Notes under the pieces: generated by a model
What the model saw: the letters and a program-made list of their open reading frames with translations, nothing else
Told to the model about the DNA's origin: nothing
The model's database searches: none
Virus genome (UHGV): UHGV-0320916
Direction: 5' to 3' (one strand)
Origin: a virus
DNA: 30,316 nt
Translations under genes and position numbers: made by a program
In this document: positions 3,803 to 30,019 of the stretch, piece by piece
How the letters are laid out: the number at the start of each line of letters is the position of its first letter
Position numbering within the stretch: position 1 is the first letter of the stretch

Positions 3803-3813
3803 GTGGAGTGGAT

Positions 3814-6213
3814 ATGGCAGCAGTAAAAATCTCAGGTGTGCTGAAAGATTGTGCGGGAAAACCAATACAGAACTGCACTATTCAACTGAAGGCAAAGCGT
3901 AACAGCACCACGGTACTGGTGAACACGGTGGCTTCTGAAAATCCGGATGAAGCCGGACGTTACAGCATGGATGTTGAGTATGGCCAGTACAGCGTCACCC
4001 TGCTGGTTGAAGGTTTTCCGCCTTCACATGCCGGGACCATTACCGTCTATGAAGGCTCCAGACCAGGTACGCTGAATGATTTTCTCGGTGCCATGACGGA
4101 AGATGATGTCATGCCGGAGGCATTGCGTCGTTTTGAGGCAATGGTGGAAGAAGTGGCACGCAACGCCGAAGCCGCCTCTCAGAGCGCAGCGGCGGCAAAG
4201 AAATCCGAAACTGCAGCGGCATCATCGAAGAACGCGGCGAAAACCTCAGAAACGAATGCAGCTAATAGTGCACAGGCGGCAGCGACCTCAAAGACTGCAT
4301 CGGCAAACTCCGCGACAGCAGCCAAAAAATCAGAAACCAACGCGAAAAATAGCGAGACAGCCGCAAAGACGAGCGAAACCAACGCAAAGTCCAGCCAGAC
4401 GGCAGCGAAGACCAGCGAAACGAATGCCAAAGCCAGTGAAACTGCGGCAAAAAACAGCCAGGTTGCAGCAGCCCAAAGCGAGAGCGCGGCAGCCGGTTCT
4501 GCGACTTCAGCAACTGGATCAGCAACTGCTGCGGCTAACAGCCAGAAAGCTGCGAAGACGAGTGAAACTAACGCAAAGTCCAGCCAGACGGCAGCGAAGA
4601 CCAGCGAAACGAATGCCAAAGCCAGTGAAACTGCGGCGAAAAACAGTCAGGATGCAGCAGCCCAAAGCGAGAGTGCCGCAGCTGGTTCTGCAAGTGCGGC
4701 GGCTTCTTCTGCCTCTGCATCAGCCAACAGTCAAAAAGCTGCAAAAACCAGTGAAACCAACGCAAAGGCGAGCGAGACTGCGGCGGCTAACTCAGCGAAA
4801 GCATCGGCAGCAAGCCAGACGGCTGCAAAAGCAAGTGAAGACGCAGCCAGAGAGTATGCAAGCCAGGCTGCGGAGCCGTATAAACAAGTTTTGCAGCCGC
4901 TTCCCGATGTGTGGATACCGTTTAACGATTCACTGGATATGATTACGGGCTTTTCGCCGTCATATAAAAAGATTGTTATTGGTGATGATGAAATAACGAT
5001 GCCTGGCGATAAGGTTGTAAAGTTTAAACGCGCATCAACTGCCACATATATCAATAAATCAGGCGTATTTAGTGTTGCTAAAATTGATGAGCCACGATTT
5101 GAAAAAGAAGGTTTATTGATTGAAGGACAGCGCACTAACTATTTTGTTAAATCCAATATCCCCGCTGAATGGACGAGTACCAGCAATATCGATAAAACTA
5201 ATAATGGTGTTGATGAATTTGGTTTTTCATATGCCAAAATGCGAACAAAAGATAATATGACAGGACAATCATCTGCACTTAGTCTGCATACATGCAGTGC
5301 ATCCCGGGGGATTGATGTTAGTGGCGATAATAAGTATTGCACTGTTTCATGCAGGGTTAAAGCTCCTGATGGTCTTCGTTGTCGTTTGCGTTTTGAAAAA
5401 TACGATGGGTCGGTTTATACATTTTTAGGAGATGCTTATTTAACTTTCGGAACTCTGATAATAGAAAAAACTGGCGGAGCAGCCAATAGAATAGCAGCTA
5501 CTGCAACTAAAGATCCGGTTACAGGGTGGATTTTCTATGAGGCAACTATAGAAGCTGTTGAAGGTGAAACCTTAATTGGCGCAATGATTCAGTATGCGCC
5601 GAAAAAAGGTGGTGTAACTGAAGCGGGAGATTATATTTACCTTGCAACACCACAATTTGAAAACGGCGGATGTGCTTCATCTTTTGTTATTACGACAACT
5701 GTACCCGCAACCCGCTCCAGTGATATGGTGACGATCCCAACTGAAAATAATATCTATAATAGACCGCTTACGTGCCTGGTCGAGGTTAATAGAAATTGGG
5801 GCGATATTCCTCCTAATGTAGCACCGCGTATTTTTGATTTTTCTGGTGTGCCACCTATTGAGTCAATTACATACGCTTTTAACACAACTGAGAAATATTA
5901 CGGTCAGCTTTATATGCAAACTTATAAAGCGTCGACAAGTACTTACGTTTCTAGTGTGTTTGCTGGTCGAACTGATGTTCGAAAATTCATTGGTGGTTTT
6001 AATATTTATTCTGATGGTACTAAACGAGTAGTTTCTAACGGTGAGGCTACTAAAACCATGAAAACGGAGTGGACGGGCGTAAAAACATGGACCTTTATTC
6101 GAATTGGAGGTCAAGCCACATCGGGAACTCGTCATCTATTCGGCCATTTGAGAAATCTTCGTCTCTGGCATAAAGAATTAACTGATGCGCAAATGGGGGA
6201 GAGTATTAAATGA
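3814..6213 (+). CDS. stf: Side tail fibre protein Stf: lambda-like N-terminus, Ala/Ser/Thr-rich SETNAK-type repeat shaft, AT-rich divergent C-terminal domain with LamG/concanavalin-like signature at its end
   Basis: MAAVKISGVLKDCAGKPIQNCTIQLKAKRNSTT... matches lambda Stf N-terminus; repeated ...AAKTSETNAKASETAAKNSQ... units; C-terminus ...HLFGHLRNLRLWHKELTDAQMGESIK; ATG at 3814 preferred over track GTG at 3808. Confidence 0.85.
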   Translation: MAAVKISGVLKDCAGKPIQNCTIQLKAKRNSTTVLVNTVASENPDEAGRYSMDVEYGQYSVTLLVEGFPPSHAGTITVYEGSRPGTLNDFLGAMTEDDVMPEALRRFEAMVEEVARNAEAASQSAAAAKKSETAAASSKNAAKTSETNAANSAQAAATSKTASANSATAAKKSETNAKNSETAAKTSETNAKSSQTAAKTSETNAKASETAAKNSQVAAAQSESAAAGSATSATGSATAAANSQKAAKTSETNAKSSQTAAKTSETNAKASETAAKNSQDAAAQSESAAAGSASAAASSASASANSQKAAKTSETNAKASETAAANSAKASAASQTAAKASEDAAREYASQAAEPYKQVLQPLPDVWIPFNDSLDMITGFSPSYKKIVIGDDEITMPGDKVVKFKRASTATYINKSGVFSVAKIDEPRFEKEGLLIEGQRTNYFVKSNIPAEWTSTSNIDKTNNGVDEFGFSYAKMRTKDNMTGQSSALSLHTCSASRGIDVSGDNKYCTVSCRVKAPDGLRCRLRFEKYDGSVYTFLGDAYLTFGTLIIEKTGGAANRIAATATKDPVTGWIFYEATIEAVEGETLIGAMIQYAPKKGGVTEAGDYIYLATPQFENGGCASSFVITTTVPATRSSDMVTIPTENNIYNRPLTCLVEVNRNWGDIPPNVAPRIFDFSGVPPIESITYAFNTTEKYYGQLYMQTYKASTSTYVSSVFAGRTDVRKFIGGFNIYSDGTKRVVSNGEATKTMKTEWTGVKTWTFIRIGGQATSGTRHLFGHLRNLRLWHKELTDAQMGESIK
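4366..4790 (+). repeat. Direct repeats with 189-bp (63-codon) period inside stf: units starting ~4366 and ~4555 are near identical over ~138 bp, a third degenerate unit starts ~4744
   Basis: aagacgagcgaaaccaacgcaaagtccagccagacggcagcgaagaccagcgaaacgaatgccaaagccagtgaaactgcgg... recurs 189 bp later with a few substitutions. Confidence 0.85.
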
Positions 6214-6491
6214 AAGATTTAACGCTCAAATTTGCAGACAGGGCCGACTTTTCGGCCTTTATGGAGAGTATTGGCTATTATGATGACGAGTCGATGCAGG
6301 ATGATATTCTTATTGACGTGATAGGTAACGTGTACAAAGAAACCGGAGAACTGACTGAAGATGGCGAACCGGTATGTGTTAAGGAAGACGGATATTTTGT
6401 AAACGTGCGCATCATTAATGATGCAAAAAAATCGTCAATATTCGATAAATACGCGATTGTTGTTGAGCATCAACTTCGTGGCTGGATGTGA
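6210..6491 (+). CDS. Hypothetical acidic 93-aa protein, start overlaps stf stop (ATGA)
   Basis: ORF MKDLTLKFADRADFSAFMESIGYYDDESMQDD...; translational coupling to stf; no family recognised. Confidence 0.5.
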   Translation: MKDLTLKFADRADFSAFMESIGYYDDESMQDDILIDVIGNVYKETGELTEDGEPVCVKEDGYFVNVRIINDAKKSSIFDKYAIVVEHQLRGWM

Positions 6492-6500
6492 GGGAGACAA

Positions 6501-7205
6501 ATGGCTACATCGACAGTAATTCCAGGAGACATCACCACGTTAAAGGGAGATGTCAGTAAAGCCAAGGAAGATATTTCCTCAATTAACGGAAAAGTATCAA
6601 CGCTTCAGACTGATATGACCAGTGCAAAGCAGGATATCAGCACCAGATACACAAAAACTGAAGTTGATAATAAGCTGAAAAACAAAGTGGAAGTGAACGA
6701 TCTGGAAAGTGGTCGTTATGGTGGAGATTTTTACCCGCTGACTGGTCGTGAAGCGTTTTATTTGTGGGGATTGGGCACGACTACAGCGGCGGCAAACCTT
6801 TATCTTAATCCTGACCCCGCAATTTCGTCTGTACTGCGGTCCACATCGTCTATCCGCTATAAACATTCAGTAGAGACGATAGATTCGGAGCACGCCGATC
6901 TCATTTTCAAGATGCGCCCTGTGTGGTACAGGTCGCAATGCGAAAATGACAGGCGCGATTGGGGATTCTATGGATTGATTGCCGAGGAAGTAGGAGAAAT
7001 TGCCCCTCAGTTTGTTCACTGGCGACCAGCTAACGAGAATGATGCTCCTGAAGCTATTTCCAGCAATGGCCTTGTTGCCGAAGGTGTAATGTACGAACGT
7101 CTGGTTGTTCCACTGATTCACCATATCCAGAAACTGACTGAAAGAGTTGATGAACTTGAGTCAGAATTAAAGTTGTTATCAACTTCCCGAAGCGATATCG
7201 GATAA
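6501..7205 (+). CDS. Tail-fibre-like protein: N-terminal coiled-coil segment plus C-terminal domain resembling the intramolecular chaperone (peptidase S74-like) of phage fibres/tailspikes
   Basis: AGGGAG RBS; heptad-like N-terminus (LKGDVSKAKEDISSINGKVSTLQTDMTSAKQDIS); C-terminal ...SSIRYKHSVETID...MRPVWYR...GFYGLIAEEVGEIAPQFV...ELESELKLL pattern resembles that domain from memory. Confidence 0.5.
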   Translation: MATSTVIPGDITTLKGDVSKAKEDISSINGKVSTLQTDMTSAKQDISTRYTKTEVDNKLKNKVEVNDLESGRYGGDFYPLTGREAFYLWGLGTTTAAANLYLNPDPAISSVLRSTSSIRYKHSVETIDSEHADLIFKMRPVWYRSQCENDRRDWGFYGLIAEEVGEIAPQFVHWRPANENDAPEAISSNGLVAEGVMYERLVVPLIHHIQKLTERVDELESELKLLSTSRSDIG

Positions 7206-7215
7206 AGGAGGAGTA

Positions 7216-7509
7216 ATGGATATAACACCTTTCCTTCATGCACTTTGTGCTGTGGCTGCGCAGGTACTGGTTGGTCTTTTTACCGGAAACTGGGCTTACG
7301 GGGCGATAGCCGGTTGTACGTTCTTCATTGCTCGTGAACATACCCAGGCAGAATATCGCTGGATTGAAATGTTCGGGCATGGCAAGCGAATGAATATGCC
7401 GTGGTGGGGCGGTTTTGATCCGCGCGCGTGGGATGTAGCAAGTCTGATGGATTTTGCTGTGCCGGTGGTGGCGTGTCTGCTGGTCTGGCTGTTGGTTAAT
7501 CGTGGGTGA
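7216..7509 (+). CDS. Hypothetical small membrane protein (97 aa, 2-3 predicted hydrophobic helices)
   Basis: Strong AGGAGG RBS 5 nt upstream of ATG; hydrophobic stretches ALCAVAAQVLVGLF and FAVPVVACLLVWLLV. Confidence 0.55.
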   Translation: MDITPFLHALCAVAAQVLVGLFTGNWAYGAIAGCTFFIAREHTQAEYRWIEMFGHGKRMNMPWWGGFDPRAWDVASLMDFAVPVVACLLVWLLVNRG

Positions 7510-7529
7510 AAAAAGGTGAGCTGTATATG

Positions 7530-7658
7530 CAACGGAGGAAGAAACCTCGTTGCTGGAAGCCTGGAAGAAGTATCGGGTGTTGCTGAACCGTGTTGATACA
7601 TCAACTGCACCTGATATTGAGTGGCCTACGAACCCTGTCAGGGAGTAATCATTGGGAT
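7530..7658 (+). pseudogene. tfa: Tail fibre assembly protein (Tfa) C-terminal remnant, ~42 codons, no start codon
   Basis: Frame encodes [42 protein letters not shown], matching the lambda Tfa C-terminus; frame is closed by TGA at 7527-7529. Confidence 0.75.
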
Positions 7659-7702
7659 TATGCCGCAGCACGTCTTAAGCAAGAACGTGCTGCGGTTGGA
7701 TG

Positions 7703-8359
7703 CTATTTTTTCCCTGAAGCGGAAAACATTACTACAGTACCTTGAACCTTGGTTTTAACATTCTCGAAATGCTCTGAGAGTATATGTGTTAAGCCTTCTT
7801 CGGAATCTTTTGTGTTTGAAAAGATGCCTTTCTGATTGTAAATGCGCATCAGTTTTTGACCGAAGCTATTGTGCACAACTCCATCGCCAAGAATTGTGGC
7901 TCCGTATAGAGTTCCATCGTCAGTTAAGGCCTGCGCCGCATTGCGTATTACACAGCTTTTTGTAGATATATTTCCAGGCAGGCAGTGAAGAAGGTAAAAC
8001 ATGGAAATGGAATCAAATTGACCATGTAACGCCGCGGGATAAGGTTCAAAAACATCATGGCTAATTTTATGTTTAATTTTTGATTCCCCAGCCCTTGTAG
8101 ATGCCGCGTTCAGGCTAGCTTCGTTCAAATCCATTAAAGATATCAGACTACTCTCAGGTACGTGAGTAAGGTAAAACCCAGTTCCAACACCAATATCCAG
8201 ATGGTTGTTACCTAAATGTTCCAGAAAGTGTGGAAGAAGGTGTTCCTTTGTAGGACATCCCCATGCAAGCCGATTTGATACTCCCAAAACCCACCAGTCA
8301 TAAAGCTTTAGGGTAAGTGGTGTGTAAATTTTAGCCCCATCATCTGTGTTTTTTTTCAT
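7703..8359 (-). CDS. ybcY: Class I SAM-dependent methyltransferase (DLP12 YbcY-like)
   Basis: Motif I LDIGVGTGFY; ORF track 7703..8371, ATG at 8359 (MKKNTDD...) has better GGTG spacing; lies between two tfa remnants as in DLP12. Confidence 0.7.
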   Translation of the reverse strand: MKKNTDDGAKIYTPLTLKLYDWWVLGVSNRLAWGCPTKEHLLPHFLEHLGNNHLDIGVGTGFYLTHVPESSLISLMDLNEASLNAASTRAGESKIKHKISHDVFEPYPAALHGQFDSISMFYLLHCLPGNISTKSCVIRNAAQALTDDGTLYGATILGDGVVHNSFGQKLMRIYNQKGIFSNTKDSEEGLTHILSEHFENVKTKVQGTVVMFSASGKK

Positions 8360-8427
8360 TAATTTCACCATGTTATAGTTTTATTTGTGAATTAAATCAA
8401 TTATGGCGATGAATTACAAGGGGTTAA

Positions 8428-8726
8428 ATGCTGCCGCAGCATAGCGATATTGAAATAGCCTGGTATGCTTCGATACAGCAGGAGCCGAATGGCTGGAAGA
8501 CCGTCACCACACAGTTCTACATCCAGGAATTCAGTGAGTATATTGCGCCACTGCAGGATGCTGGGAAATCGCAACGGAGGAAGAAAGATCGTTGCTGGAG
8601 GCATGGAATAAATATCGGGTATTGTTGAATCGTGTTGATACATCAGTAGCTCTGGGTATGAAGCTGTTTGTAACTCATGTTACAGTAACAGCCATTACTA
8701 TCTCGAAGGTGCAAAATGTATATTGA
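8428..8726 (+). pseudogene. tfa: Tail fibre assembly protein (Tfa) homologue with a frameshift: ...[10 protein letters not shown] in one frame, [27 protein letters not shown]... in another
   Basis: Two frames each match consecutive parts of lambda Tfa (IAPLQDA then [23 protein letters not shown]); junction at ~8560-8570. Confidence 0.65.
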
Positions 8727-8839
8727 TTTGATATTTTATAAATTTACTTCGAATCTGGCACGTCAACTTTTGATTAAAGTAATATCAGTTTTCGGCGAAA
8801 AAAGGACCGTGTACATGAGACGATTTCATACAAGAATAA

Positions 8840-8889
8840 CAAAAATATGAATATGCTCCCAATGCAATATATGTTTTGCATTGGGAGCA
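8840..8889 (-). terminator. 13-bp perfect-stem hairpin (gctcccaatgcaa / ttgcattgggagc) 21 nt past the hydrolase stop, U-rich on the minus-strand side
   Basis: Stem 8855-8867 pairs with 8877-8889; minus-strand downstream sequence auauucauauuuuu. Confidence 0.45.
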
Positions 8890-8909
8890 AATAGCGGAAT
8901 ATTTTGAAA

Positions 8910-18759: not shown

Positions 18760-18900
18760 CTTATGTGGTTGGGTGATCTGGCTTTTCAGCCACGTAGTCG
18801 AGAGTCGACGTTGTTTAAAGAGCCTGCCAGTCTGTTCCATTTGGCTTCCAGCGTCCTGCTGACGGTTAAATAGTACGATATGTACTTTATGAGATCAATA
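18760..18900. promoter_or_regulatory. Candidate pL/oL region with nutL expected nearby; contains inverted repeats ACAAtttgTTGT and AGTACgatatGTACT that resemble repeats in the cI-cro intergenic region
   Basis: Position upstream of N on the minus strand; palindromes read from sequence; no promoter assignment verified. Confidence 0.35.
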
Positions 18901-19090
18901 CAATTTGTTGTAAGTTGGCGTGGTTTTTTATAACGCTTTGTATTTAATAGTGTTGTTTTTTAGCGTGGATGTATTGCCTCGGCGATGTAAGGAGAGATCA
19001 GAATTGCGTGGTTTAGTGGGTTGCATCTATTTATTTTTCAATAAATACAATTGGTTATGTGTTTTTAGGTGGGGCGATCGTGAGGCAAAG

Positions 19091-19117
19091 AAAACCCGGC
19101 GCTGAGGCCGGGTTTTT
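19091..19117. terminator. Bidirectional intrinsic terminator (aaaa-cccggc-gctgag-gccggg-ttttt) directly after the stop of the 258-aa gene
   Basis: GC stem flanked by A run and T run; analogous position to the lambda terminator after rexB. Confidence 0.7.
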
Positions 19118-19894
19118 CTAGGCTACCAGAGACTCAATCCAAGAGTCTCTGGTATGGAATGGCAACACTCGTGCGGTATCATTAAATAGTAGTGATAGTT
19201 GCTGTAGCTCAGGTGTTAACCCATCGCTGTCAACTATTACAAATCTATTGTTTATGTCAGGAACGACCTGACTTAAGTCAACAATCTTCCCAACTGTTGA
19301 GTGGGCAGTATTCCATCCCTTACTGCTGGCAAGGCTTACCGTAAACCCGCGTTTTGGTGGTATTAGTCGAGACTCATTCCTTAGCGTTAACGGAACAGTA
19401 ATGTTATGCCCACTAATACCTTTCACTTTTTCCTTTAAGGCTAGTCGCTTCCCAAGCCCTGCTGATTTTAAGTAACTGATTACACATTTTTCGAACTTAT
19501 CGTCTTTGACCTCAGCATACCAATCAGCAGTTTGGGCGGATGCAAGAATCCCACCACGAATAACATTTGCAGTTACCTGTCCAACGGACGACTCATCTGC
19601 CCACGCAGATATCTCTCCAGAGTCATTTAATGAAATTCCTTGCGAAGCGAGTGATGACCTGATCAGATCAATTTTCTTTTTAGTCAGGTGGATGCCGCGT
19701 GATTCAATATTCATCAATGTATCGCAGTAGTCTGTAACCCTATACTGACCACTCATCTCTTGAACGAATACACTTATCTGCTCACAATCATCGTAGTATG
19801 TGAAGGGACTAATAACGCGCAGCAACGTGTCGCTCATTGGGTGGCATTCAAACCCGAGCTTAGATATGACTGTTGAACACGTTACATTTCCCAT
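19118..19894 (-). CDS. Hypothetical 258-aa protein, second gene of a two-gene cassette in the rexB position; no recognised domain
   Basis: ORF MGNVTCSTVISKLGFECHPMSDTLLRVISPF...; start overlaps upstream gene by 13 nt; AT-rich relative to flanking lambda genes. Confidence 0.65.
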   Translation of the reverse strand: MGNVTCSTVISKLGFECHPMSDTLLRVISPFTYYDDCEQISVFVQEMSGQYRVTDYCDTLMNIESRGIHLTKKKIDLIRSSLASQGISLNDSGEISAWADESSVGQVTANVIRGGILASAQTADWYAEVKDDKFEKCVISYLKSAGLGKRLALKEKVKGISGHNITVPLTLRNESRLIPPKRGFTVSLASSKGWNTAHSTVGKIVDLSQVVPDINNRFVIVDSDGLTPELQQLSLLFNDTARVLPFHTRDSWIESLVA

Positions 19895-20424
19895 GATAGC
19901 TGACCTGATTTATCTTGATTAGGTAAAGGTGGGCTGCCTTCATATATGATATTAAGCGCCTCGCAAAAATAATTCCAGTAGCCAAAAAAATCATCTGGCT
20001 TGATGTTCGTTTCAAGCTTAAGTGCAATTTCTTCCCCAGCTGATTCGAAGTACATGTGATAGTGAGGACCTCGAGCCACCTCAACAAAATCTGGATGGTT
20101 CACTATAGATTTATTACGGTGTGGCTTGTTATCCGCAGGGTACGGGTCAAGCGCGTAAATGCGCCTGTCATGAAGAAACATCACAAATGAAATCTTCACT
20201 ATATCCACCCCTTCAACGATAGGAGGACGCCAGTGAAGCATAAATCTTATGCCTGTGATTGGGTTGCCAATTTCATCAAAAGCTTTGAGATCCAATTTAA
20301 ACCAGATTGGGGTTCGTCCCTCACTTCCGGTCCATGTAACTCCGCTAAAAGTTACTTTTTTCAAGCGAGTAATAGCTTGGTCAACCTCTTTCTGGGTAGG
20401 CTTAAAGTCGCCTTTTTTAGCCAC
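19882..20424 (-). CDS. Hypothetical 180-aa protein, first gene of a two-gene cassette in the rexA position downstream of cI; no recognised domain
   Basis: ORF MAKKGDFKPTQKEVDQAITRLKKVTFSGVTW...HRNKSIVNHPDFVEVARGPHYHMYF...; 46 bp downstream of cI stop, same strand. Confidence 0.65.
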   Translation of the reverse strand: MAKKGDFKPTQKEVDQAITRLKKVTFSGVTWTGSEGRTPIWFKLDLKAFDEIGNPITGIRFMLHWRPPIVEGVDIVKISFVMFLHDRRIYALDPYPADNKPHRNKSIVNHPDFVEVARGPHYHMYFESAGEEIALKLETNIKPDDFFGYWNYFCEALNIIYEGSPPLPNQDKSGQLSWEM

Positions 20425-20470
20425 TGATTCGTATCACCATGAAAGTTATTGTTAATACCTGTGCTTCTTG

Positions 20471-21130
20471 TCACCCAAACGTCTCTTCAGGCCACTGACT
20501 AGCGATAACTTTCCCCACAACGGAACAACTCTCATTGCATGGGATCATTGGGTATTGTGGGTTTAGTGGCTGTAGAAACACCTGACCGCTATCCCTGATC
20601 AGTTTCTTGAAGGTAAACTCATCACCACCAAGTCTGGCTATACAGAAATCGCCTGGCTCAACAGCCTGCTCAGGGTCAACCAGAATTAACATCCCGTCAG
20701 GAAAGCTGGGCTTGGAACCTGTTGGTGCGGTCATTGAGTTACCTTCAACCTCAAGCCAGAATGCAGAGTCACTGGCTTTTTTGGTTGTGCTTACCAATCT
20801 CTCCGCATCGCCTTTGGTAAAGGTTCTGAGTTCTGGAGAGAACATCCCAGCCTGAACATGAGAAAAAACAGGGTACTCATATTGTTTTTTAACTGGGGCC
20901 GATGAGTATTCGCCAACAGGTGAAAATGTCCCGTCGTGGTTGAATGATATGTTATCAATACCAAGGTATTTAAACACCACACCAATATCACTAAGAGATG
21001 GATGACGAGATCCGCGCAACCAGTGTCCAATCCCACCCTGCGTCATACCTAGCTCTTCGGCTAACTTCTCTTGAGTTATGCCGAGCTCTTTCATTCTGGA
21101 TCTAGCCAGTTCATACCATTTCATTTTCAT
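20471..21130 (-). CDS. cI: CI repressor: lambda-type C-terminal dimerisation/autocleavage domain with a non-lambda N-terminal HTH domain (hetero-immune)
   Basis: C-terminal ...[131 protein letters not shown] matches lambda CI; N-terminal HTH ...[23 protein letters not shown] differs; start codon uncertain (21124-21172). Confidence 0.85.
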
Positions 21131-21241
21131 GTCCTTATTATTACGCTTTGTACTGGAACCATCCATGCACAATGTGTATTTTTACTTGTATTCGTAAAGT
21201 ACATATTGTATTTTTTTATTCGTGTTTACTATGGAGGGCAT
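21131..21241. promoter_or_regulatory. Immunity-region operator/promoter (oR, divergent pRM/pR) between cI and cro; contains ACAA...TGTA-type inverted repeats
   Basis: Divergent cI/cro arrangement; candidate -35 TTTACT and -10 TATTGT 17 bp apart upstream of the cro RBS GGAGGG. Confidence 0.5.
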
Positions 21242-21457
21242 ATGAGCAACCTACGAAAATATCGAGAGTCACTGAATATCTCTCAAACAACACTTGCTAA
21301 GGCAGTTGGATGCACACAGGGAGCTATCGGACATTGGGAATCTGGTCGTCGCTTCCCAGACCTTAAAACATGCCGTGCTCTTGTTGCGTGCCTAAACAAG
21401 TTAGGCGCAAAAGTCAGTCTTGATGACGTGTTCCCGCCGGAACACAAAGCCGCTTAA
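21242..21457 (+). CDS. cro: Cro-like HTH repressor (not lambda Cro sequence)
   Basis: 71 aa MSNLRKYRESLNISQTTLAKAVGCTQGAIGHWESGRRFPD...; GGAGGG RBS; HTH similar to the cI N-terminal domain. Confidence 0.75.
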   Translation: MSNLRKYRESLNISQTTLAKAVGCTQGAIGHWESGRRFPDLKTCRALVACLNKLGAKVSLDDVFPPEHKAA

Positions 21458-21598
21458 TAAGCGGATCCGCTCTTTGTAACAACGGACATTCGTCCTACGT
21501 CGCTGAAAAGCGAGTTCCAAGATATCTGACCAACTAAGGCCATATGCGTTTCCACGCATACCTTTCAACTAACTATTCACTATTGGAAATCTTAAGAA

Positions 21599-21895
21599 AT
21601 GGAAAGAACAAGTTACAGCAAACTATCACAGCGTGACGTTGATCGCGCAGAAACAGATTTACTTATCAATCTGTCAGCTATTACCCAGCGCGGTCTGGCA
21701 AAGATGATTGGCTGTCATGAATCGAAGATAAGCAGAACGGACTGGAGATTTATTGCTTCGGTCTTGTGTGCTTTCGGAATGGCATCAGACATCAGTCCGA
21801 TTAGCAGGGCTTTTAAGTATGCGCTTGATGGACTCACCAATAAAAAACGCCCGGCGGCAACCGAGCGTTCTGAACAAATCCAGATGGAGTTCTGA
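21599..21895 (+). CDS. cII: CII transcriptional activator (lambda-like C-terminus, divergent N-terminus)
   Basis: ...LTNKKRPAATERSEQIQMEF matches the lambda CII C-terminus. Confidence 0.8.
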   Translation: MERTSYSKLSQRDVDRAETDLLINLSAITQRGLAKMIGCHESKISRTDWRFIASVLCAFGMASDISPISRAFKYALDGLTNKKRPAATERSEQIQMEF

Positions 21896-21927
21896 GGTCA
21901 TTACTGGATCTATCAACAGGAGTCATT

Positions 21928-22827
21928 ATGACAAATACAGCAAAAATACTCAACTTCGGCAGAGGTAACTTTGCCGGACAGGAGCGTAATGTGGCAGATC
22001 TCGATGATGGTTACGCCAGACTATCAAATATGCTGCTTGAGGCTTATTCGGGCGCAGATCTGACCAAGCGACAGTTTAAAGTGCTGCTTGCCATTCTGCG
22101 TAAAACCTATGGGTGGAATAAACCAATGGACAGAATCACCGATTCTCAACTTAGCGAGATTACAAAGTTACCTGTCAAACGGTGCAATGAAGCCAAGTTA
22201 GAACTCGTCAGAATGAATATTATCAAGCAGCAAGGCGGCATGTTTGGACCAAATAAAAACATCTCAGAATGGTGTATCCCTCAAAACGAGGGAAAATCCC
22301 CTAAAACGAGGGATAAAACATCCCTCAAATTGGGGGATTGCTATCCCTCAAAACAGGGGGACACAAAAGACACTATTACAAAAGAAAAAAGAAAAGATTA
22401 TTCGTCCGAGAATTCTGGCGAATCCTCTGACCAGCCAGAAAACGACCTTTCTGTGGTGAAACCGGATGCTGCAATTCAGAGCGGCAGCAAGTGGGGGACA
22501 GCAGAAGACCTGACCGCCGCAGAGTGGATGTTTGACATGGTGAAGACCATCGCGCCATCAGCCAGAAAACCGAATTTTGCAGGGTGGGCTAACGATATCC
22601 GCCTGATGCGTGAACGTGACGGACGTAACCACCGCGACATGTGCGTGCTGTTCCGCTGGGCATGCCAGGACAACTTCTGGTCCGGTAACGTGCTTAGCCC
22701 GGCCAAACTCCGCGACAAGTGGACCCAGCTCGAAATCAACCGTAACAAGCAACAGGCAGTCGTGACAGCCAGCAAACCAAAACTCGACCTGACAAACACA
22801 GACTGGATTTACGGGGTGGATCTATGA
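21928..22827 (+). CDS. O: Replication initiator O
   Basis: 299 aa MTNTAKILNFGRGNFAGQERNVADLDDGYARLSNMLLEAYSG..., matches lambda O. Confidence 0.93.
   Translation: MTNTAKILNFGRGNFAGQERNVADLDDGYARLSNMLLEAYSGADLTKRQFKVLLAILRKTYGWNKPMDRITDSQLSEITKLPVKRCNEAKLELVRMNIIKQQGGMFGPNKNISEWCIPQNEGKSPKTRDKTSLKLGDCYPSKQGDTKDTITKEKRKDYSSENSGESSDQPENDLSVVKPDAAIQSGSKWGTAEDLTAAEWMFDMVKTIAPSARKPNFAGWANDIRLMRERDGRNHRDMCVLFRWACQDNFWSGNVLSPAKLRDKWTQLEINRNKQQAVVTASKPKLDLTNTDWIYGVDL
22277..22400. promoter_or_regulatory. Replication origin inside O: four ~18-bp iterons (tccctcaaaacgaggga-type) followed by an A-rich tract
   Basis: Iterons at ~22277, 22297, 22321 and 22344, then acacaaaagacactattacaaaagaaaaaagaaaag. 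Confidence 0.85.
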
Positions 22828-23525
22828 AAAACATCGCCGCACAGATGGTTAACTTTGACCGTGAGCAGATGCGTCGGATCGCCAACAACATGCCGGAACA
22901 GTACGACGAAAAGCCGCAGGTACAGCAGGTAGCGCAGATCATCAACGGTGTGTTCAGCCAGTTACTGGCAACTTTCCCGGCGAGTCTGGCTAACCGTGAC
23001 CAGAACGAACTGAACGAAATCCGCCGCCAGTGGGTTCTGGCTTTCCGGGAAAACGGGATCACCACAATGGAACAGGTTAACGCAGGAATGCGCGTAGCCC
23101 GTCGGCAGAATCGACCATTTCTGCCATCACCCGGGCAGTTTGTTGCATGGTGCCGGGAAGAAGCATCCGTTATCGCCGGACTGCCAAACGTCAGCGAGCT
23201 GGTTGATATGGTTTACGAGTATTGCCGGAAGCGAGGCCTGTATCCGGATGCGGAGTCTTATCCGTGGAAATCAAACGCGCACTACTGGCTGGTTACCAAC
23301 CTGTATCAGAACATGCGGGCCAATGCGCTTACTGATGCGGAATTACGGCGCAAGGCTGCCGATGAACTGACCTGTATGACAGCGCGAATTAACCGTGGTG
23401 AGACGATACCTGAACCAGTAAAACAACTTCCTGTTATGGGCGGTAGACCTCTAAATCGTGCACAGGCTCTGGCGAAGATCGCAGAAATTAAAGCTAAGTT
23501 CGGACTGAAAGGAGCAAGTGTATGA
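22824..23525 (+). CDS. P: Replication protein P (DnaB helicase loader)
   Basis: 233 aa MKNIAAQMVNFDREQMRRIANNMPEQYDEKPQVQQVAQIINGVF..., matches lambda P; overlaps O stop. Confidence 0.93.
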   Translation: MKNIAAQMVNFDREQMRRIANNMPEQYDEKPQVQQVAQIINGVFSQLLATFPASLANRDQNELNEIRRQWVLAFRENGITTMEQVNAGMRVARRQNRPFLPSPGQFVAWCREEASVIAGLPNVSELVDMVYEYCRKRGLYPDAESYPWKSNAHYWLVTNLYQNMRANALTDAELRRKAADELTCMTARINRGETIPEPVKQLPVMGGRPLNRAQALAKIAEIKAKFGLKGASV

Positions 23526-23811
23526 CGGGCAAGAGGCAATTATTCATTACCTGGGGACGCATAATAGCTTCTGTGCGCCGGACGTTGCCGCGCTAACAGG
23601 CGCAACAGTAACCAGCATAAATCAGGCCGCGGCTAAAATGGCACGGGCAGGTCTTCTGGTTATCGAAGGTAAGGTCTGGCGAACGGTGTATTACCGGTTT
23701 GCTACCAGGGAAGAACGGGAAGGAAAGATGAGCACGAACCTGATTTTTAAGGAGTGTCGCCAGAGTGCCGCGATGAAACGGGTATTGGCGGTATATGGAG
23801 TTAAAAGATGA
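23518..23811 (+). CDS. ren: Ren protein
   Basis: ...AIIHYLGTHNSFCAPDVAALTGATVTSINQAAAKMARAGLLVIEGKVWRTVYYRFATREEREGKMSTNL..., matches lambda Ren. Confidence 0.85.
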   Translation: MYDGQEAIIHYLGTHNSFCAPDVAALTGATVTSINQAAAKMARAGLLVIEGKVWRTVYYRFATREEREGKMSTNLIFKECRQSAAMKRVLAVYGVKR

Positions 23812-23884
23812 CCATCTACATTACTGAGCTAATAACAGGCCTGCTGGTAATCGCAGGCCTTTTTATTTGGGGGAGAGGGAAGTC

Positions 23885-24325
23885 ATGAAAAAACTAACCT
23901 TTGAAATTCGATCTCCAGCACATCAGCAAAACGCTATTCACGCAGTACAGCAAATCCTTCCAGACCCAACCAAACCAATCGTAGTAACCATTCAGGAACG
24001 CAACCGCAGCTTAGACCAAAACAGGAAGCTATGGGCCTGCTTAGGTGACGTCTCTCGTCAGGTTGAATGGCATGGTCGCTGGCTGGATGCAGAAAGCTGG
24101 AAGTGTGTGTTTACCGCAGCATTAAAGCAGCAGGATGTTGTTCCTAACCTTGCCGGGAATGGCTTTGTGGTAATAGGCCAGTCAACCAGCAGGATGCGTG
24201 TAGGCGAATTTGCGGAGCTATTAGAGCTTATACAGGCATTCGGTACAGAGCGTGGCGTTAAGTGGTCAGACGAAGCGAGACTGGCTCTGGAGTGGAAAGC
24301 GAGATGGGGAGATCGGGCTGCATGA
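23885..24325 (+). CDS. ninB: NinB recombination protein
   Basis: MKKLTFEIRSPAHQQNAIHAVQQILPDPTKPIVVTIQERNRSLDQNRKLWACLGDV..., matches lambda NinB. Confidence 0.88.
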   Translation: MKKLTFEIRSPAHQQNAIHAVQQILPDPTKPIVVTIQERNRSLDQNRKLWACLGDVSRQVEWHGRWLDAESWKCVFTAALKQQDVVPNLAGNGFVVIGQSTSRMRVGEFAELLELIQAFGTERGVKWSDEARLALEWKARWGDRAA

Positions 24326-24849
24326 CTATCAAATCAAATACGCCAGCACACGACAAGGACTGCTGGCAAACGCCGCTTTGGCTTTTTGATGCACTGGATA
24401 TTGAGTTTGGATTCTGGCTGGATTCGGCAGCGAGCGACAAAAATGCTCTGTGTGCTCACTGGCTAACTGAGGCCGACGACGCGCTCAATTCTGAGTGGGT
24501 AAGCCACGGTGCAATCTGGAATAACCCACCGTACAGCAATATCAGGCCGTGGGTGGAAAAAGCCGCTGAGCAGTGCATACAACAGCGACAGACGGTAGTG
24601 ATGCTTGTGCCAGAGGATATGTCAGTCGGATGGTTCAGCAAGGCTCTGGAGAGTGTCGACGAAGTTCGCATTATCACTGATGGACGGATTAATTTTATCG
24701 AACCATCGACGGGGCTGGAGAAGAATGGAAACAGCAAAGGCTCCATGCTGCTGATTTGGCGACCGTTCATCAGTCCTCGACGGATGTTTACTACCGTATC
24801 CAAAGCGGCATTGATGGCGATCGGGCAGGGCGTCAGGAGGGCTGCATGA
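24322..24849 (+). CDS. Phage-type DNA N6-adenine methyltransferase (Dam-like)
   Basis: [31 protein letters not shown]...; NPPY catalytic motif ([10 protein letters not shown]); ATGA overlap with ninB stop. Confidence 0.8.
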
Positions 24850-25022
24850 GACGACAGCGACGAAGCATCACCGACATAATCTGCGAAAACTGCAAATACC
24901 TTCCAACGAAATGCTCCAGAAATAAACGCAAGCTAATCCCAAAAGAATCTGACGTAAAAACCTTCAATTACACAGCCCACCTGTGGGATATCCGGTGGCT
25001 AAGATATCGTGCGAGGAAATGA
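24846..25022 (+). CDS. ninE: NinE
   Basis: [58 protein letters not shown]; ATGA overlap with the methyltransferase stop. Confidence 0.7.
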
Positions 25023-25366
25023 CAATGGATTATTCACAGTTAAGTGATTTTGAAATTAACAGAATGGTAGGAGACATAATTTTTAAAGGCCTTTGGGCAA
25101 GTAAACCGGAAACATCAGGGAATAACACCAACAAATGGTATTACGGAAATGCTGATACAACTTTTGAGCCATTAAATCATTTGCCTGACTACTGCAATGA
25201 TCCGAGCGCTTCATGGCCGATTATTGAGAAATACAGGATTTCTATCTTAGACCAGTTAACTGAATGGTGTGTGGATGCAAAAGGCGTAAGCCCAATATTT
25301 GATACCAGACCTCTCCGCGCCGCCATGATTGTCTTTCTCCTGATGCAGGAGGCCAATAATGCTTAG
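25019..25366 (+). CDS. Hypothetical nin-region protein (115 aa)
   Basis: [76 protein letters not shown]...; ATGA overlap with ninE stop. Confidence 0.55.
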
Positions 25367-25553
25367 CCCATCTCAATCCCTTCAATACCTGAAAGAAAGC
25401 ATAGAGCGGGCTTCAATGTGCACAGAGTGGATTCTATCTAGGTTTAGCGCATACAGAAGATTGCCGGTAAAGGGCATGCCAAGCAAGTCGATGCTGCATA
25501 TGCAAAAGAATGCGCGCTGGAAGGTATGGCGAGAACACAGGTTATGTGGCTAA
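25359..25553 (+). CDS. Hypothetical nin-region protein (64 aa)
   Basis: ORF overlapping the previous stop; [29 protein letters not shown]... Confidence 0.4.
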
Positions 25554-25572
25554 AAGAGGGGGTTATTAAGGC

Positions 25573-25935
25573 GTGAATACCTACAGCATCACATTACCCT
25601 GGCCTCCGAGCAATAATCGCTATTACCGCCATAATCGCGGGCGCACGCACGTCAGCGCAGAGGGGCAGGCATACCGCGATAACGTCGCCCGAATCATTAA
25701 AAACGCAATGCTGGATATCGGCCTGGCTATGCCTGTGAAAATCCGCATTGAGTGCCACATGCCGGATCGCCGTCGCCGTGACCTGGATAATCTGCAAAAA
25801 GCCGCTTTTGACGCACTCACTAAAGCAGGTTTCTGGCTGGATGATGCTCAGGTCGTTGATTACCGCGTTGTGAAGATGCCTGTTACCAAAGGTGGGAGGC
25901 TGGAACTGACCATCACCGAAATGGGGAATGAATGA
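25573..25935 (+). CDS. rusA: RusA Holliday-junction resolvase (GTG start)
   Basis: 120 aa [45 protein letters not shown]..., matches E. coli DLP12 RusA. Confidence 0.92.
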
Positions 25936-26072
25936 TGTTTGAGTTTAATATGGCAGAACTTCTTCGCCACCGCTGGGGGCGTCTGCGCTTATATCGTTTC
26001 CCCGGTTCTGTTTTGACCGATTACCGAATACTGAAGAATTACGCCAAAACCCTGACAGGAACAGGAGTATGA
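25932..26072 (+). CDS. ylcG: YlcG-like small protein (46 aa)
   Basis: [46 protein letters not shown]; ATGA overlap with rusA stop; not in ORF track (short). Confidence 0.7.
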
Positions 26073-26157
26073 AGTCAGAGATAACAATCAACTAATACTG
26101 TTTTGTTGATTTTTGCTTGTAATTGGCGTTCTGGTCTGATTTTTGTGGAGTAAGTTG

Positions 26158-26541
26158 ATGCGTGATATTCAGATGGTTCTTGAGCGTTGGGGTGCGTGGG
26201 CGGCTAATAATCATGAAGATGTGACCTGGTCGTCCATTGCCGCCGGTTTTAAGGGATTAATTCCTTCAAAAGTAAAATCTCGCCCGCAATGTTGTGACGA
26301 TGACGCGATGATCATTTGCGGGTGCATGGCCCGTCTGAAAAAGAACAACAGCGATTTACACGATTTATTAGTAGATTATTATGTATGTGGTATGACATTC
26401 ATGTCACTGGCAAGTAAGCATTGCTGCTCGGATGGTTATATCGGGAAAAGGTTACAGAAGGCTGAGGGCATAATTGAAGGGATGTTAATGGCATTAGATA
26501 TCCGGTTAGATATGGATATCGTTGCTAATAATTCTAATTGA
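26158..26541 (+). CDS. quuD: Late-gene antiterminator Q (DLP12 QuuD type)
   Basis: [60 protein letters not shown]...; ORF track begins at 26143. Confidence 0.85.
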
Positions 26542-26562
26542 TATGCAATTGTTTACTAAAAG

Positions 26563-26590
26563 TTATTAAAAATGGGGCGTGGAAACGCCC
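26563..26590 (-). terminator. Hairpin ggggcg-tggaaa-cgcccc followed on the minus strand by a U run; candidate nmpC terminator
   Basis: Minus-strand read ggggcguuuccacgcccc auuuuuaau. Confidence 0.45.
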
Positions 26591-26678
26591 CCAAAATAAA
26601 GGGTAATATATAACAGAAGGTTTATATAGTAAGAAGCAAGGTAGTGCTTCTAAAGGAAGTGGCTTGAGGGCTCCACTT

Positions 26679-26720
26679 ATATGTTGCGGAGGCAAAGCCT
26701 CCCGCAACATATCTTTTTCG
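26679..26720 (+). terminator. Strong hairpin plus T run ~180 nt downstream of Q: candidate tR' of the short pR' transcript
   Basis: atatgttgcggagg-caaag-cctcccgcaacatat followed by ctttttcg. Confidence 0.5.
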
Positions 26721-26729
26721 TAAGTCAGA

Positions 26730-27812
26730 TTAGAACTGATAAACCAGACCTACAGCGACGATGTCGTCGGTATCAATACCAGCTGTTTTGGTAAACTTAC
26801 TATCGTCAATTAAGTTGATTTTGTAATCAACAAAAGTAGACATGTTTTTATTAAAGTAGTAAGTAGCACCGACATCGACATACTTGACTAAGTCTCGGTC
26901 ACCATGAACACCAAGGTCTTTACCTTTTGACTGAAGGTAAGCAACAGATGGGCGCAGACCGAAGTCAAACTGATATTGTGCTACTGCTTCAAAGTTTTGT
27001 GCTTTGTTTGCAATATGGTTATTACCAAAAACGGTCATATTCTGAGTTTCAGAATATGTGGTAGCCAGATAGATATTGTTCGCATCATATTTCAGGCCTG
27101 CAGCCCATACTTCCGCATTTTTGCCGGAGGCATTGAATTTGCTCTTACCATAGGCGACCTGACCGTCAGTGCGATCTGATTTAGCATAGGTTGCACCCAC
27201 GCCGAATCCTTCATACTCATAAGTAGTGGAGAAACCGAAACCATCACCATTGGCTTCAGTTACGTCAGTGCGGTCATTTTTACCCTGATACTGAGCAGCA
27301 AAGTTCAGGCCATCGACCAGACCAAAGAAGTCGTTGTTACGATAAGTTGCAACACCAGTAGTGCGACCAGTCATGAACACATCTGTTTGGGTCCAGGTAT
27401 CACCACCGAATTCTGGCAGAACGTCAGTCCACGCACCGATGTCGTATGCTACACCGTAGTTACGGCCGTAATCGATTGAGCCGTAATCACCAAATTTCAG
27501 GCCTGCAAATGCAAGACGGGTTTTGTCTTTGGAAGAACCTTGAGATTCAGCACGGTTGCCTTTGAATTCATATTCCCACTGACCGAAACCAGTCAGTTGA
27601 TCGTTGATTTGGGTTTCACCTTTGAAGCCAAGACGGGCATAAGTAGTATCACCATCATCTGCATCATTAGAGGAGAAGTAGTGCTTGGCATTAACTTTCC
27701 CGTATAGATCCAGCTTGTTACTGTCTTTATTATAAATTTCAGCTGCCTGAGCAGACATCGCCATCAGTACTGATGCAGCTACAGCAGAAATTGCCACTGT
27801 TAATTTTTTCAT
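26730..27812 (-). CDS. nmpC: General porin NmpC/OmpD family, intact; antisense to late transcription between Q and the lysis genes
   Basis: [40 protein letters not shown]...VGLVYQF; typical OmpC/OmpF-family porin with C-terminal Phe. Confidence 0.9.
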
Positions 27813-28400
27813 TGTACGCCCTTTTTTTGAACTATTATTAAAAAATGATGTCACTGCGCGATAAATATTCATCTAATCAATGTGATTATTTCAAGATGTA
27901 AGTTTTAGTTTCTCATTTAATTTGTGAAGTAGATCTCTATTTTTATCTGAACCTTTTCTATCTAATCCTATTCATGGCTCTTGTCTGAACAAAAATAAAT
28001 CTATTAGCTAATTTATATTAATGGCACTTATTTATAAGCGCTCTATAATTCTTTAGCTTAATTTAAACAAACTAAAAATAACATCGGAAATTATTAACTG
28101 ATTATTTGTTGAGGTTTTCTTATGTATTTGTGGTGGTGTTTTGAACACTCGGTGGCATTCTCACAAATATCATTTAGTAGTTTACGTACGTAAAAAATTG
28201 GTTATGCTGTTAAGAGTGGTTACTTCGTCACACAGCTTAAACCCGCCGTCGAGCGGGTTTTTCCATTTTTTGAGTCTCGATATTAGCTGATAACCCAATA
28301 CCTGAGTTATTCACTGACTCCGAATCTGTTACGTTTCTGCCTTTATTGCGATACGTAGTATCCCCTTAATTTACACCCGCTTTGTCTGCGAGGTGGGGTT

Positions 28401-28616
28401 ATGAAATCCATGGATAAGTTAACAACGGGTGTCGCCTATGGCACCTCAGCAGGTAGTGCCGGTTACTGGTTTTTACAGCTGCTCGATAAAGTCACGCCCT
28501 CACAGTGGGCAGCAATAGGTGTGCTGGGTAGCCTGGTATTTGGCCTGCTGACGTACCTGACAAACCTTTATTTCAAGATTAAAGAAGATAAGCGCAAGGC
28601 TGCGAGAGGTGAATAA
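28401..28616 (+). CDS. essD: Class II holin (phage 21 S / pinholin type, dual-start MKSM)
   Basis: [71 protein letters not shown]. Confidence 0.9.
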
Positions 28617-29571: not shown

Positions 29572-29602
29572 AGCTGCCCATATCGATGGGCAACTCATGC
29601 AA

Positions 29603-29896: not shown

Positions 29897-30019
29897 CTTA
29901 TTATCCTGCATTGTTAAAAACGGCAGAATCCTATGTGACAACAATTAAACGATAGTTAAATGGATTGATGAAAATTAAAACTATATAGGTGGATGCTCAG
30001 CCTATTGGAGGAGGGGGGG

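Follow-up and report, generated by a model that had tools for sequence, protein, structure and literature searches.

A methyltransferase gene between two tfa remnants in a DLP12-family lambda-like phage: a probable module-swapping scar of a known kind

That tail-fibre genes undergo mosaic exchange is textbook phage biology, and the lambda stf-tfa module and the mosaic exchange of its fibre genes were reportedly treated by Hendrix and Duda and by Haggard-Ljungquist, both in 1992, and by Sandmeier in 1994. Lambdoid phages additionally carry morons, genes added to the late region or b-region together with a promoter and a terminator of their own, including lom, bor, sitABCD and ompT. The tail fibre assembly protein Tfa is described as modular in a passage of PMC9608196 that cites North et al. 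2019, with a variable N-terminal fibre-binding domain and a conserved C-terminal helical trimerisation domain. An arrangement of two tfa pieces around a methyltransferase gene, tfaD-ybcY-tfaX, is already annotated in the DLP12 element of Escherichia coli K-12.

We investigated the corresponding region of a 30,316-nucleotide stretch of phage DNA (the window, to which all positions refer). The window represents the right half of a lambda-like, plaque-forming phage type (2G7b, ev243), and aligns to phage 2G7b with 88% coverage and 98.9% identity, with ev243 also matching. Positions 7529-8650 are 97.2% identical, over 1,129 aligned columns, to the tfaD'-ybcY-tfaX segment of K-12 DLP12, and ompT lies downstream, indicating that the DLP12 order recognised in a preliminary description reflects the same locus and not mere likeness. 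Beyond 8650 the homology to K-12 is interrupted until ompT at 10577, where positions 10577-12003 are 98% identical to K-12 ompT and its flank. This ompT region, on the minus strand, is the last cargo before the attachment site and integrase, and both ev243 and 2G7b continue from it into int. To the right of the second tfa remnant is a further cargo gene, a minus-strand alpha/beta hydrolase of the secreted type (8910-10394; Abhydrolase_1, E = 3e-33). No Rfam family matched within positions 6000-12500. We consider it highly probable that the region is the accessory (moron) segment that a DLP12-family lambda-like phage carries between its tail-fibre genes and its attachment site, and that both tfa pieces are dead recombination scars. 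The arrangement is an ordinary module-swapping scar, of a kind already known.

A repeat finder recovered positions 7529-7603 and 8571-8645 as a single 75-nucleotide direct repeat, 88% identical and with a spacing of 1042 nt. Both copies are on the plus strand, were also recovered by a pattern search and encode the conserved Tfa C-terminus (the conserved tfa 3' box), flanking the minus-strand methyltransferase gene. The degenerate box pattern had exactly two sites in the 30-kb window, and none in 100 shuffles. Of the 75 positions, 9 differ between the copies, synonymously in six cases, and the longest perfect run is about 20 nt. The preliminary description had placed a Tfa C-terminal segment of about 75-90 bp at 7537-7612 and 8570-8645; its repetition in direct orientation and the second interval hold, and the first interval is about 8 nt off.

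The first remnant (7520-7648, plus strand) preserves the final 40 codons of a tail fibre assembly gene of the lambda type, as defined by Caudo_TAP and by homology to K-12 tfaD and PhiR26_1 tfa. Its translation of 39 residues, ending at a natural stop codon at 7646-7648, matches positions 95-130 of the 131 in the Pfam profile PF02413 (Caudo_TAP; E = 1.3e-17). As first described, this copy has no start codon: there is an in-frame TGA at 7517-7519, and no ATG, GTG or TTG until the TTG at 7550. Homology to K-12 tfaD and to the intact, 194-aa tfa of PhiR26_1 begins exactly at 7529. Left of this point is a different module, consisting of an 801-aa Stf, a 93-aa ORF, a 234-aa fibre protein with a Peptidase_S74 chaperone domain, and lastly a hydrophobic 97-aa ORF (7216-7509, plus strand) belonging to phrog_1443 (unknown function, E = 3.5e-59) and without a match in Pfam or NCBIfam. 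The stop of this last ORF is 20 nt before the start of the tfa homology, and both the ORF and its junction to tfa are the same in ev243, 2G7b and ev017. PhiR26_1 has a true tfa at the position of the first remnant, where its intact stf and tfa are followed by the same ybcY-tfaX-hydrolase-ompT block, with 99.5% identity from 7529 on. The reading of the first remnant as the scar of a fibre-module exchange is supported, and the Peptidase_S74 domain suggests that the replacement module may be independent of Tfa.

The second remnant (8515-8650, plus strand; Caudo_TAP and K-12 alignment) is an internal fragment covering about codons 137-183 of 194, without the N-terminal domain or the final 11 codons. 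It exceeds the repeat, starting at 8515-8521 and ending at 8645-8650, with the right-hand limit taken from the K-12 alignment. It forms the centre of tfaX (8428-8726, plus strand), a chimeric ORF of 29 unrelated, 48 tfa and 24 unrelated codons defined from its split ORFs, the K-12 alignment and phrog_2341. The preliminary description had noted that this copy is split across two reading frames, and we confirm the split (ORFs 8428-8628 and 8592-8726), which is due to a 7-bp deletion located between 8563 and 8564 in the K-12 alignment. The relatives PhiR26_1 and ev243 have an uninterrupted 101-aa tfaX ORF, and the two-frame split is therefore a lineage-specific deletion. The same split is found in 2G7b, whose 66-aa and 44-aa "tail fiber assembly proteins" are halves of one frameshifted chimeric ORF. 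Against Caudo_TAP, the second half of the split copy scores E = 1.5e-5, and the intact allele E = 9e-18 (positions 75-121 of 131). All three tfaX alleles are common, with at least 1000 contigs each for the intact and the K-12 nonsense allele and 800 for the allele with the 7-bp deletion; among plaque-forming phages, ev243 has the intact form and 2G7b and PhiR49_1 the deleted one. A 167-aa representative of the tfaX cluster (P0122), considered as a tfa-tfaX hybrid protein, proved to be an unrelated fibre fragment and a clustering artefact.

The fibre-specific N-terminal Tfa domain, of about 130 residues, is absent from both copies, and the conserved C-terminal helical segment, including a shared stretch of 17 residues, is present in both. 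A working tfa is an unbroken ORF that has a start codon and follows stf directly, and neither copy has this form. Neither is intact through a missed start, the first being without a start before the TTG and the second being frameshifted. Both tfa pieces should be annotated as pseudogenes.

The second remnant abuts unrelated DNA (8402-8514) on the left, and on the right appY in K-12 and hydrolase-ompT in the window. The left-hand segment, which supplies the first 29 tfaX codons, is shared with phage Ayreon at 90.6% identity ending exactly at 8514; a distant DNA search found it only beside ybcY and in Ayreon, and recovered no intact parent gene. Among 50,697 phage records, no donor allele for the tfa fragment was closer than 87%, the best intact tfa genes being 85-87% identical. 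The view of the locus as the scar of repeated fibre exchange stands for the first copy and needs correcting for the second, an internal tfa piece joined to unrelated DNA and cargo and so a scar in a different sense. PGAP labels 8446-8526 on the minus strand a DinI fragment, and the minus-strand ORF 8401-8643 had no Pfam DinI match at E<=10. In other genomes, the region equivalent to 7650-8530 is labelled "nucleocapsid protein". Both labels appear weak.

Between the remnants, we identified an intact class I SAM-dependent methyltransferase of the YbcY family (7703-8371, minus strand, 222 aa; Methyltransf_12 match), for which the ATG at 8359, preceded by GGTGA and giving 218 aa, is the more likely start. 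The protein contains motif I (GxGxG) and a seven-stranded Rossmann-like fold, lacks the DNA-methylase catalytic motif, whether (D/N/S)PP(Y/F/W) or PCQ with ENV, and is not a DNA methylase. Its fold matches small-molecule class I methyltransferases, including phosphatidylethanolamine N-methyltransferase (8ys9), juvenile hormone acid methyltransferase (7ec0), UbiG and natural-product methyltransferases, at only 11-21% identity, and none of these stands out as one substrate class. Searches against PDB sequences, whether started from the single protein or from a profile, yielded weak matches only (JHAMT, E = 1.5e-5, and UbiG), and those against NCBIfam gave matches far below the cut-offs and no equivalog. 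The N-terminal motif of the family, YDWWVL...N..AW.C, had no match among the named families tested, and in Salmonella and Enterobacter, homologues of 56-60% identity had no conserved partner gene beside them. The proposed search for substrate-class signatures thus returned a fold of the small-molecule type and no DNA-methylase motif, and did not single out one class.

The association of the methyltransferase with this locus, on which the earlier reading depended, is upheld by its presence in 3,846 of 5,426 E. coli genomes (about 70%) and in 15 phage records. The gene is AT-rich (GC 40-43%), and is intact even in the minimal remnant argU-int'-'tfa-ybcY-ompT of FDAARGOS_1253, from which tfaX and the hydrolase are gone. 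The family is conserved, and its fold and motifs suggest that the substrate would most likely be a small molecule or lipid rather than DNA. Very widespread, intact and resembling a small-molecule enzyme, this methyltransferase is the main biological interest of the region.

The divergent spacer between the methyltransferase gene and tfaX (8372-8427) contains a promoter-like site, TTAACC-16-CATAAT, on the minus strand at 8427-8400, which is a consensus match only. In K-12, the ybcY<>tfaX spacer was bound by RpoD holoenzyme in genomic SELEX in vitro, and is HNS-marked in the same table (PMC3946193). The methyltransferase probably has its own sigma-70 promoter and would be expressed from the prophage. 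At the other end of the gene, folding predicts a stable, terminator-like hairpin with a T-run (7662-7696, plus strand) between the convergent tfa remnant and methyltransferase. The surrounding segment (7640-7725) folds at -35.5 kcal/mol (z = -4.7), and none of 200 shuffles was as stable. The hairpin is kept in K-12 and Ayreon, its T-run being on the plus strand only, and it was not called by a simple terminator scan, most probably owing to a loop too long for that scan. On the strand of the methyltransferase itself, no clean terminator was found after the gene. The cargo varies between relatives: 7742-8401 is missing from Ayreon, and ev017 has sitABCD instead.

In a comparison of six phage or prophage genomes, no fewer than six recombination breakpoints fell inside the tfa box or at most about 60 nt away from it. 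The breakpoint at 7529 is shared by the window, ev243, 2G7b and ev017, that of Ayreon is about 12-30 nt upstream of 7529, and ev017 has another at 7585, followed by sitABCD. Further breakpoints lie at 8514/8515 and 8645-8650, and a switch between the K-12 and window types is located inside 8600-8650. The tfa 3' end, which encodes the conserved helical oligomerisation domain, is almost identical across otherwise unrelated fibre modules, and would therefore provide a homology patch for recombination between co-resident lambdoid genomes. The clustering of breakpoints in these six genomes is consistent with this interpretation, under which the tfa box serves the swapping both of fibre modules and of cargo (appY, hydrolase-ompT, sitABCD). 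The outcome is a compact, checkable breakpoint map, in which one conserved 75-nt coding box is the junction for fibre and cargo swaps.

The comparisons show the following history, the order and age of its events being inferred from present-day genomes. Through an old illegitimate join at 8514/8515, a second tfa allele contributed an internal 3' fragment to the DNA downstream of the methyltransferase, creating the chimeric tfaX ORF. The DNA to the right of about 8600-8650 was exchanged, giving appY in K-12 and hydrolase-ompT in the window. In the window lineage, everything left of 7529 was replaced by the fibre module bearing Peptidase_S74, leaving 40 tfa codons, and tfaX then decayed, through the 7-bp deletion in the window and through a TGA in K-12.

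In this history the two copies descend from different working tfa alleles, as the preponderance of synonymous differences between them indicates, and not from a local duplication. A duplication of the 3' end of a single tfa, caused by insertion of the methyltransferase cassette in or next to it, would explain why the copies are direct, close to the cassette and confined to the same 75-nt segment, but we consider it very improbable. Nine differences in 75 positions, mostly synonymous, are the pattern of alleles that diverged while functional, and the second copy is at most 87% identical to any intact tfa. It moreover begins 56-63 nt further upstream than the first, at its join to unrelated DNA, and Ayreon has that same DNA without a second tfa piece. 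In K-12 and PhiR26_1 a long or complete tfa is present upstream, the gene never being split by the cassette. It is just as improbable that the repeats, once in place, form a working deletion switch in which RecA-type recombination would excise the methyltransferase with appreciable frequency, as the earlier suggestion that they could mediate its deletion would imply. Their length, identity, direct orientation and perfect run make them a substrate in principle; however, two 600-nt model junctions, with the window-type or the intact-tfa left flank, were found at >=80% coverage in none of 5,426 complete E. coli genomes, although each flank separately occurs in more than 3,300. For a longer model junction of 1,059 nt, the matches listed were all normal, two-piece loci, because the search joined its two flanks, which the 600-nt junctions preclude. 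The only loss of the methyltransferase seen, in Ayreon, removed 7742-8401 through breakpoints at 7741/8402, and the FDAARGOS_1253 remnant lost tfaX and the hydrolase and kept the methyltransferase. Repeat-mediated deletion is accordingly rejected at the population level.

Decay of a chimeric ORF accounts for tfaX better than the proposal that the intact 101-aa form is a genuine gene, of which the window would hold a null allele. Such a protein would combine the Tfa oligomerisation helix with a hydrophobic tail, and might for example interfere with the Tfa of competing phages. The number of contigs with the intact ORF and its own PHROG family are in favour of this proposal, as is a predicted promoter facing tfaX in the K-12 spacer that binds RNA polymerase (PMC3946193). 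We nonetheless judge it decidedly unlikely. Alleles inactivated in two independent ways are each roughly as frequent as the intact one, and both states are found among plaque-forming phages. The fibre-binding N-terminal domain is absent, and the 29 N-terminal codons derive from a stretch that Ayreon leaves non-coding or reads differently. Somewhat less doubtful, but still unlikely, is a role for the YbcY-family methyltransferase as a lysogenic-conversion enzyme and selected payload, which would methylate a host envelope lipid or metabolite and alter the surface or physiology of the lysogen; phosphatidylethanolamine N-methylation is given as an example because the top Foldseek match is the bacterial PmtA 8ys9.

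The locus can be compared with known systems. As in the lambda stf-tfa module, unrelated fibre modules have the Tfa C-terminal segment in common, and this segment is the site of exchange junctions, but neither copy in the window is a working tfa, and the resident fibre carries a Peptidase_S74 intramolecular chaperone domain. With phage morons, the methyltransferase shares its AT-richness, an orientation opposite to the late genes, a position beside other cargo and a patchy distribution among relatives, although its promoter is only predicted, RNA polymerase binding being known in vitro and for K-12 only. The closest system is DLP12 (b0561-b0563), which has the three elements in the same order and orientation, with ompT downstream. 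DLP12 is a cryptic remnant, whereas the window comes from a complete, plaque-forming phage type. K-12 tfaD keeps 187 codons, fused to a terminase remnant, where the window keeps 40, and K-12 ybcY is a pseudogene through a 2-bp loss at the start codon, where the window gene is intact. Finally, K-12 tfaX is stopped by its TGA (61 aa) and continues to the natural tfa end beside appY, whereas tfaX in the window has the 7-bp deletion, is cut at 8645-8650 and is followed by the alpha/beta hydrolase.

We identified a direct repeat of 75 nt, corresponding to the tfa 3' box, at 7529-7603 and 8571-8645 (repeat finder and pairwise alignment; 88% identity, spacing 1,042 nt). A degenerate pattern of this box matched two sites in the whole window, exactly both copies, and none in 100 shuffles. 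Together with the ORFs and the Caudo_TAP and Methyltransf_12 matches, this upholds the preliminary description of two tfa pieces around a minus-strand methyltransferase, although its first pair of repeat coordinates was shifted by about 8 nt and the tfa-derived DNA extends beyond the repeat in both copies. Copy 1 indeed has no start codon (in-frame TGA at 7517-7519; earliest start a TTG at 7550), covers the last 36 positions of Pfam Caudo_TAP (E=1.3e-17) and closes with TAA at 7646-7648; remnant 1 also lacks the fibre-binding domain. The split of copy 2 over two frames, as overlapping ORFs 8428-8628 and 8592-8726, is caused by 7 bp missing between 8563 and 8564 in the window and in phages 2G7b and PhiR49_1. 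In phages PhiR26_1 and ev243 this region is a single 101-aa ORF (tfaX), Tfa-like in its middle part only (Caudo_TAP positions 75-121, E=9e-18), and in E. coli K-12 tfaX is instead closed by a TGA, giving a 61-aa TfaX. Neither remnant can count as a Tfa, since each lacks the N-terminal domain and an intact ORF.

The three tfaX alleles are all common, the intact form in at least 1000 contigs, the 7-bp deletion in 800 and the K-12 nonsense form in at least 1000, and plaque-forming phages occur in both states (ev243 intact, 2G7b broken). This points to tfaX evolving neutrally, with a role for the intact allele being conceivable.

Left of 7529 the window has a different fibre module from PhiR26_1, comprising an 801-aa Stf, a 93-aa ORF, a 97-aa hydrophobic ORF and, between these two ORFs, a 234-aa fibre protein that has an intramolecular chaperone domain (Peptidase_S74). 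The stf ORF (3808-6213) is intact in the window and contains long Ala/Ser/Thr-rich near-tandem repeats (KTSETNAKSSQTAAK...); in E. coli IAI39 and LST200A, PGAP renders the same gene as pseudogene pieces with opposite-strand "hypothetical proteins", and that of LST200A is additionally interrupted by an IS3 insertion. The three small ORFs occupy 6210-7509 (93 aa, phrog_1361; 234 aa, Peptidase_S74; 97 aa, phrog_1443). For the 234-aa protein, the match is confined to the C-terminal 240 positions of phrog_3299, a fibre family of 1,385 positions, and the protein may therefore be a remnant in its own right or else a short, separate fibre.

The two box copies differ at 9 positions, 6 of them synonymous, with 2 amino acids differing, and they therefore diverged while parts of working tfa genes. 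The copies accordingly represent different tfa alleles, and the mostly synonymous differences make a local duplication of the tfa 3' end very unlikely. Among 50,697 phage records, no intact tfa above 87% identity was found as donor for remnant 2, which leaves an old join or an unsampled donor as the explanation.

In the six genomes compared, breakpoints cluster in or near the box. The fibre module ends at the same junction, 7529, in the window, ev243, 2G7b and phage ev017. Homology to K-12 tfaD begins at this same base, as does that to PhiR26_1 (99.5%), in which stf and a complete 194-aa tfa precede the same ybcY-tfaX-hydrolase-ompT block. The tfa of phage Ayreon was truncated independently, about 12-30 nt further upstream, and in our reading of its translation the Stf C-terminus resembles a fused S74-type chaperone. 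A further breakpoint, at window position 7585, is followed by sitABCD cargo in ev017. For remnant 2, tfa-derived DNA extends on the left to 8514/8515, where Ayreon, sharing 8398-8514 at 90.6%, diverges and has no second tfa piece, and on the right to 8645-8650. Inside 8600-8650 the window diverges from K-12, and further on the two are unrelated, K-12 continuing into the natural tfa end and appY and the window into an alpha/beta hydrolase. In ev017 and ev207, both Jouyvirus phages, the sitABCD operon for iron/manganese transport is joined directly inside the first box and stands in place of methyltransferase, tfaX, hydrolase and ompT (seen at 4034-7500 of the ev017 locus).

Tfa is described as modular in the passage of PMC9608196 that cites North et al. 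2019, in that the N-terminal, fibre-binding domain varies and the helical C-terminal domain, which drives trimerisation, is conserved. This conservation explains the near-identical tfa 3' DNA among otherwise unrelated modules, so crossovers of co-resident lambdoid genomes can land there. In our reading, the box would be a shared homology patch at the border of fibre module and cargo, and both remnants would be by-products of at least three exchanges, with decay afterwards.

It had also been proposed that the repeats could mediate deletion of the methyltransferase, and this was not borne out. Junctions were modelled from box recombination with the left flank of the window or of an intact tfa, as queries short enough that the search could not merge two normal flanks into one match. 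Neither query was found at ≥80% coverage anywhere in 5,426 complete E. coli genomes, while parts of them matched in more than 3,300. The observed losses take other routes. Ayreon lacks 7742-8401, retaining the last 11 methyltransferase codons and, starting some 30 nt ahead of the annotated ATG, the upstream DNA with part of the predicted promoter. In the minimal remnant of E. coli FDAARGOS_1253 (argU-int'-'tfa-ybcY-ompT), the methyltransferase is intact and tfaX and the hydrolase are gone, which fits the UPEC context reported in PMC6854850, with ompT 272 bp from ybcY. This extreme remnant of the DLP12 family (3925-6907 of its locus), beside a tRNA-Arg gene, has kept only int', a 375-nt tfa fragment, intact ybcY and ompT.

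The gene in the middle encodes a class I SAM methyltransferase whose family is uncharacterised, in an uninterrupted 222-codon ORF (7703-8371, minus strand) matching Methyltransf_12 and related models above cut-offs. An 881-nt segment carrying it occurs in 15 phage records and in 3,846 of 5,426 E. coli genomes, with a maximum of four places in any one genome; the exact protein is found in at least 1000 contigs. Homologues of 55-70% identity, none carrying a specific name, were identified in Salmonella, Enterobacter, Citrobacter, Klebsiella, Yersinia, Erwinia, Aeromonas and Shewanella. The Salmonella neighbourhood consists of ordinary chromosomal genes and that of Enterobacter, where fragments of DUF3987 and Peptidase_S74 lie nearby, resembles the remnant of a mobile element; these two share no partner gene. 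All invariant residues of a 22-member alignment are kept. Nearly all homologues begin at the fifth codon of the window ORF, ATG 8359, preceded by GGTGA, which makes a 218-aa product likely; exactly at the equivalent start, ybcY of K-12 has lost 2 bp.

A confident AlphaFold model (pLDDT 89.5) gave as top Foldseek matches bacterial phosphatidylethanolamine N-methyltransferase, juvenile hormone acid methyltransferase and natural-product methyltransferases, and neither a DPPY nor a PCQ motif is present, which together argue for a small molecule or lipid, not DNA, as the predicted substrate class. The gene is AT-rich (GC 40-43%), is convergent to the late genes, with a stable hairpin in between (7662-7696, z=-4.7), and has a promoter-like site at 8427-8400. 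The K-12 ybcY-tfaX spacer bound RpoD holoenzyme in genomic SELEX, with an HNS mark in the same table (PMC3946193). Such traits are usual for phage morons, and by these the gene is a putative moron.

The 494-aa alpha/beta hydrolase (8910-10394, minus strand) is phage cargo in place of appY, adjoining ompT. Its N-terminus looks, in our reading, like a signal peptide; it has a TAP-like C-terminal domain, weakly matches prolyl aminopeptidases and is labelled "putative lactone hydrolase" in 2G7b (phrog_20134, unknown function). Just past its stop on the minus strand is a terminator-like inverted repeat (8851-8892; 17 nt, 94% complementary, 8-nt loop).

The match to the tfaD-ybcY-tfaX order of DLP12, a cryptic prophage of K-12, holds: 7529-8650 aligns to tfaD'-ybcY-tfaX at 97.2% identity and 10577-12003 to ompT at 98%. 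The 3-kb region is 99.9-100% identical to the chromosomes of E. coli IAI39, CE10 and LST200A, within a prophage beside ompT, envY and nfrA, the DLP12 site. Past ompT (12003-30316) phage DNA continues, not chromosome, which places the window in virion order or in a tandem prophage and sets it apart from a simple DLP12 remnant. The plaque-forming, lambda-like phages 2G7b (covering 88% of 25 kb at 98.9%) and ev243 are collinear with it through int, early genes, Q, porin gene and lysis genes, with the same integrase, and the window is thus the right half of a Nesevirus-type phage genome. The Q-porin-lysis block (within 26202-29950) is 91-96% identical to DLP12 quuD-nmpC-essD-rrrD. The tfa-methyltransferase segment is located in an accessory region, with fibre genes on one side and the attachment site on the other.

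Our analysis corrects the anatomy, identifies the 7-bp deletion, maps the breakpoints, gives a negative result for deletion through the repeats and assigns the methyltransferase to the small-molecule type. Nothing here is new in kind, the arrangement and the mechanism being already known. That conserved tail-fibre sequences are sites of mosaic exchange has long been established, and the annotated tfaD-ybcY-tfaX locus of DLP12 has the same arrangement, which a complete phage of that family carries here.
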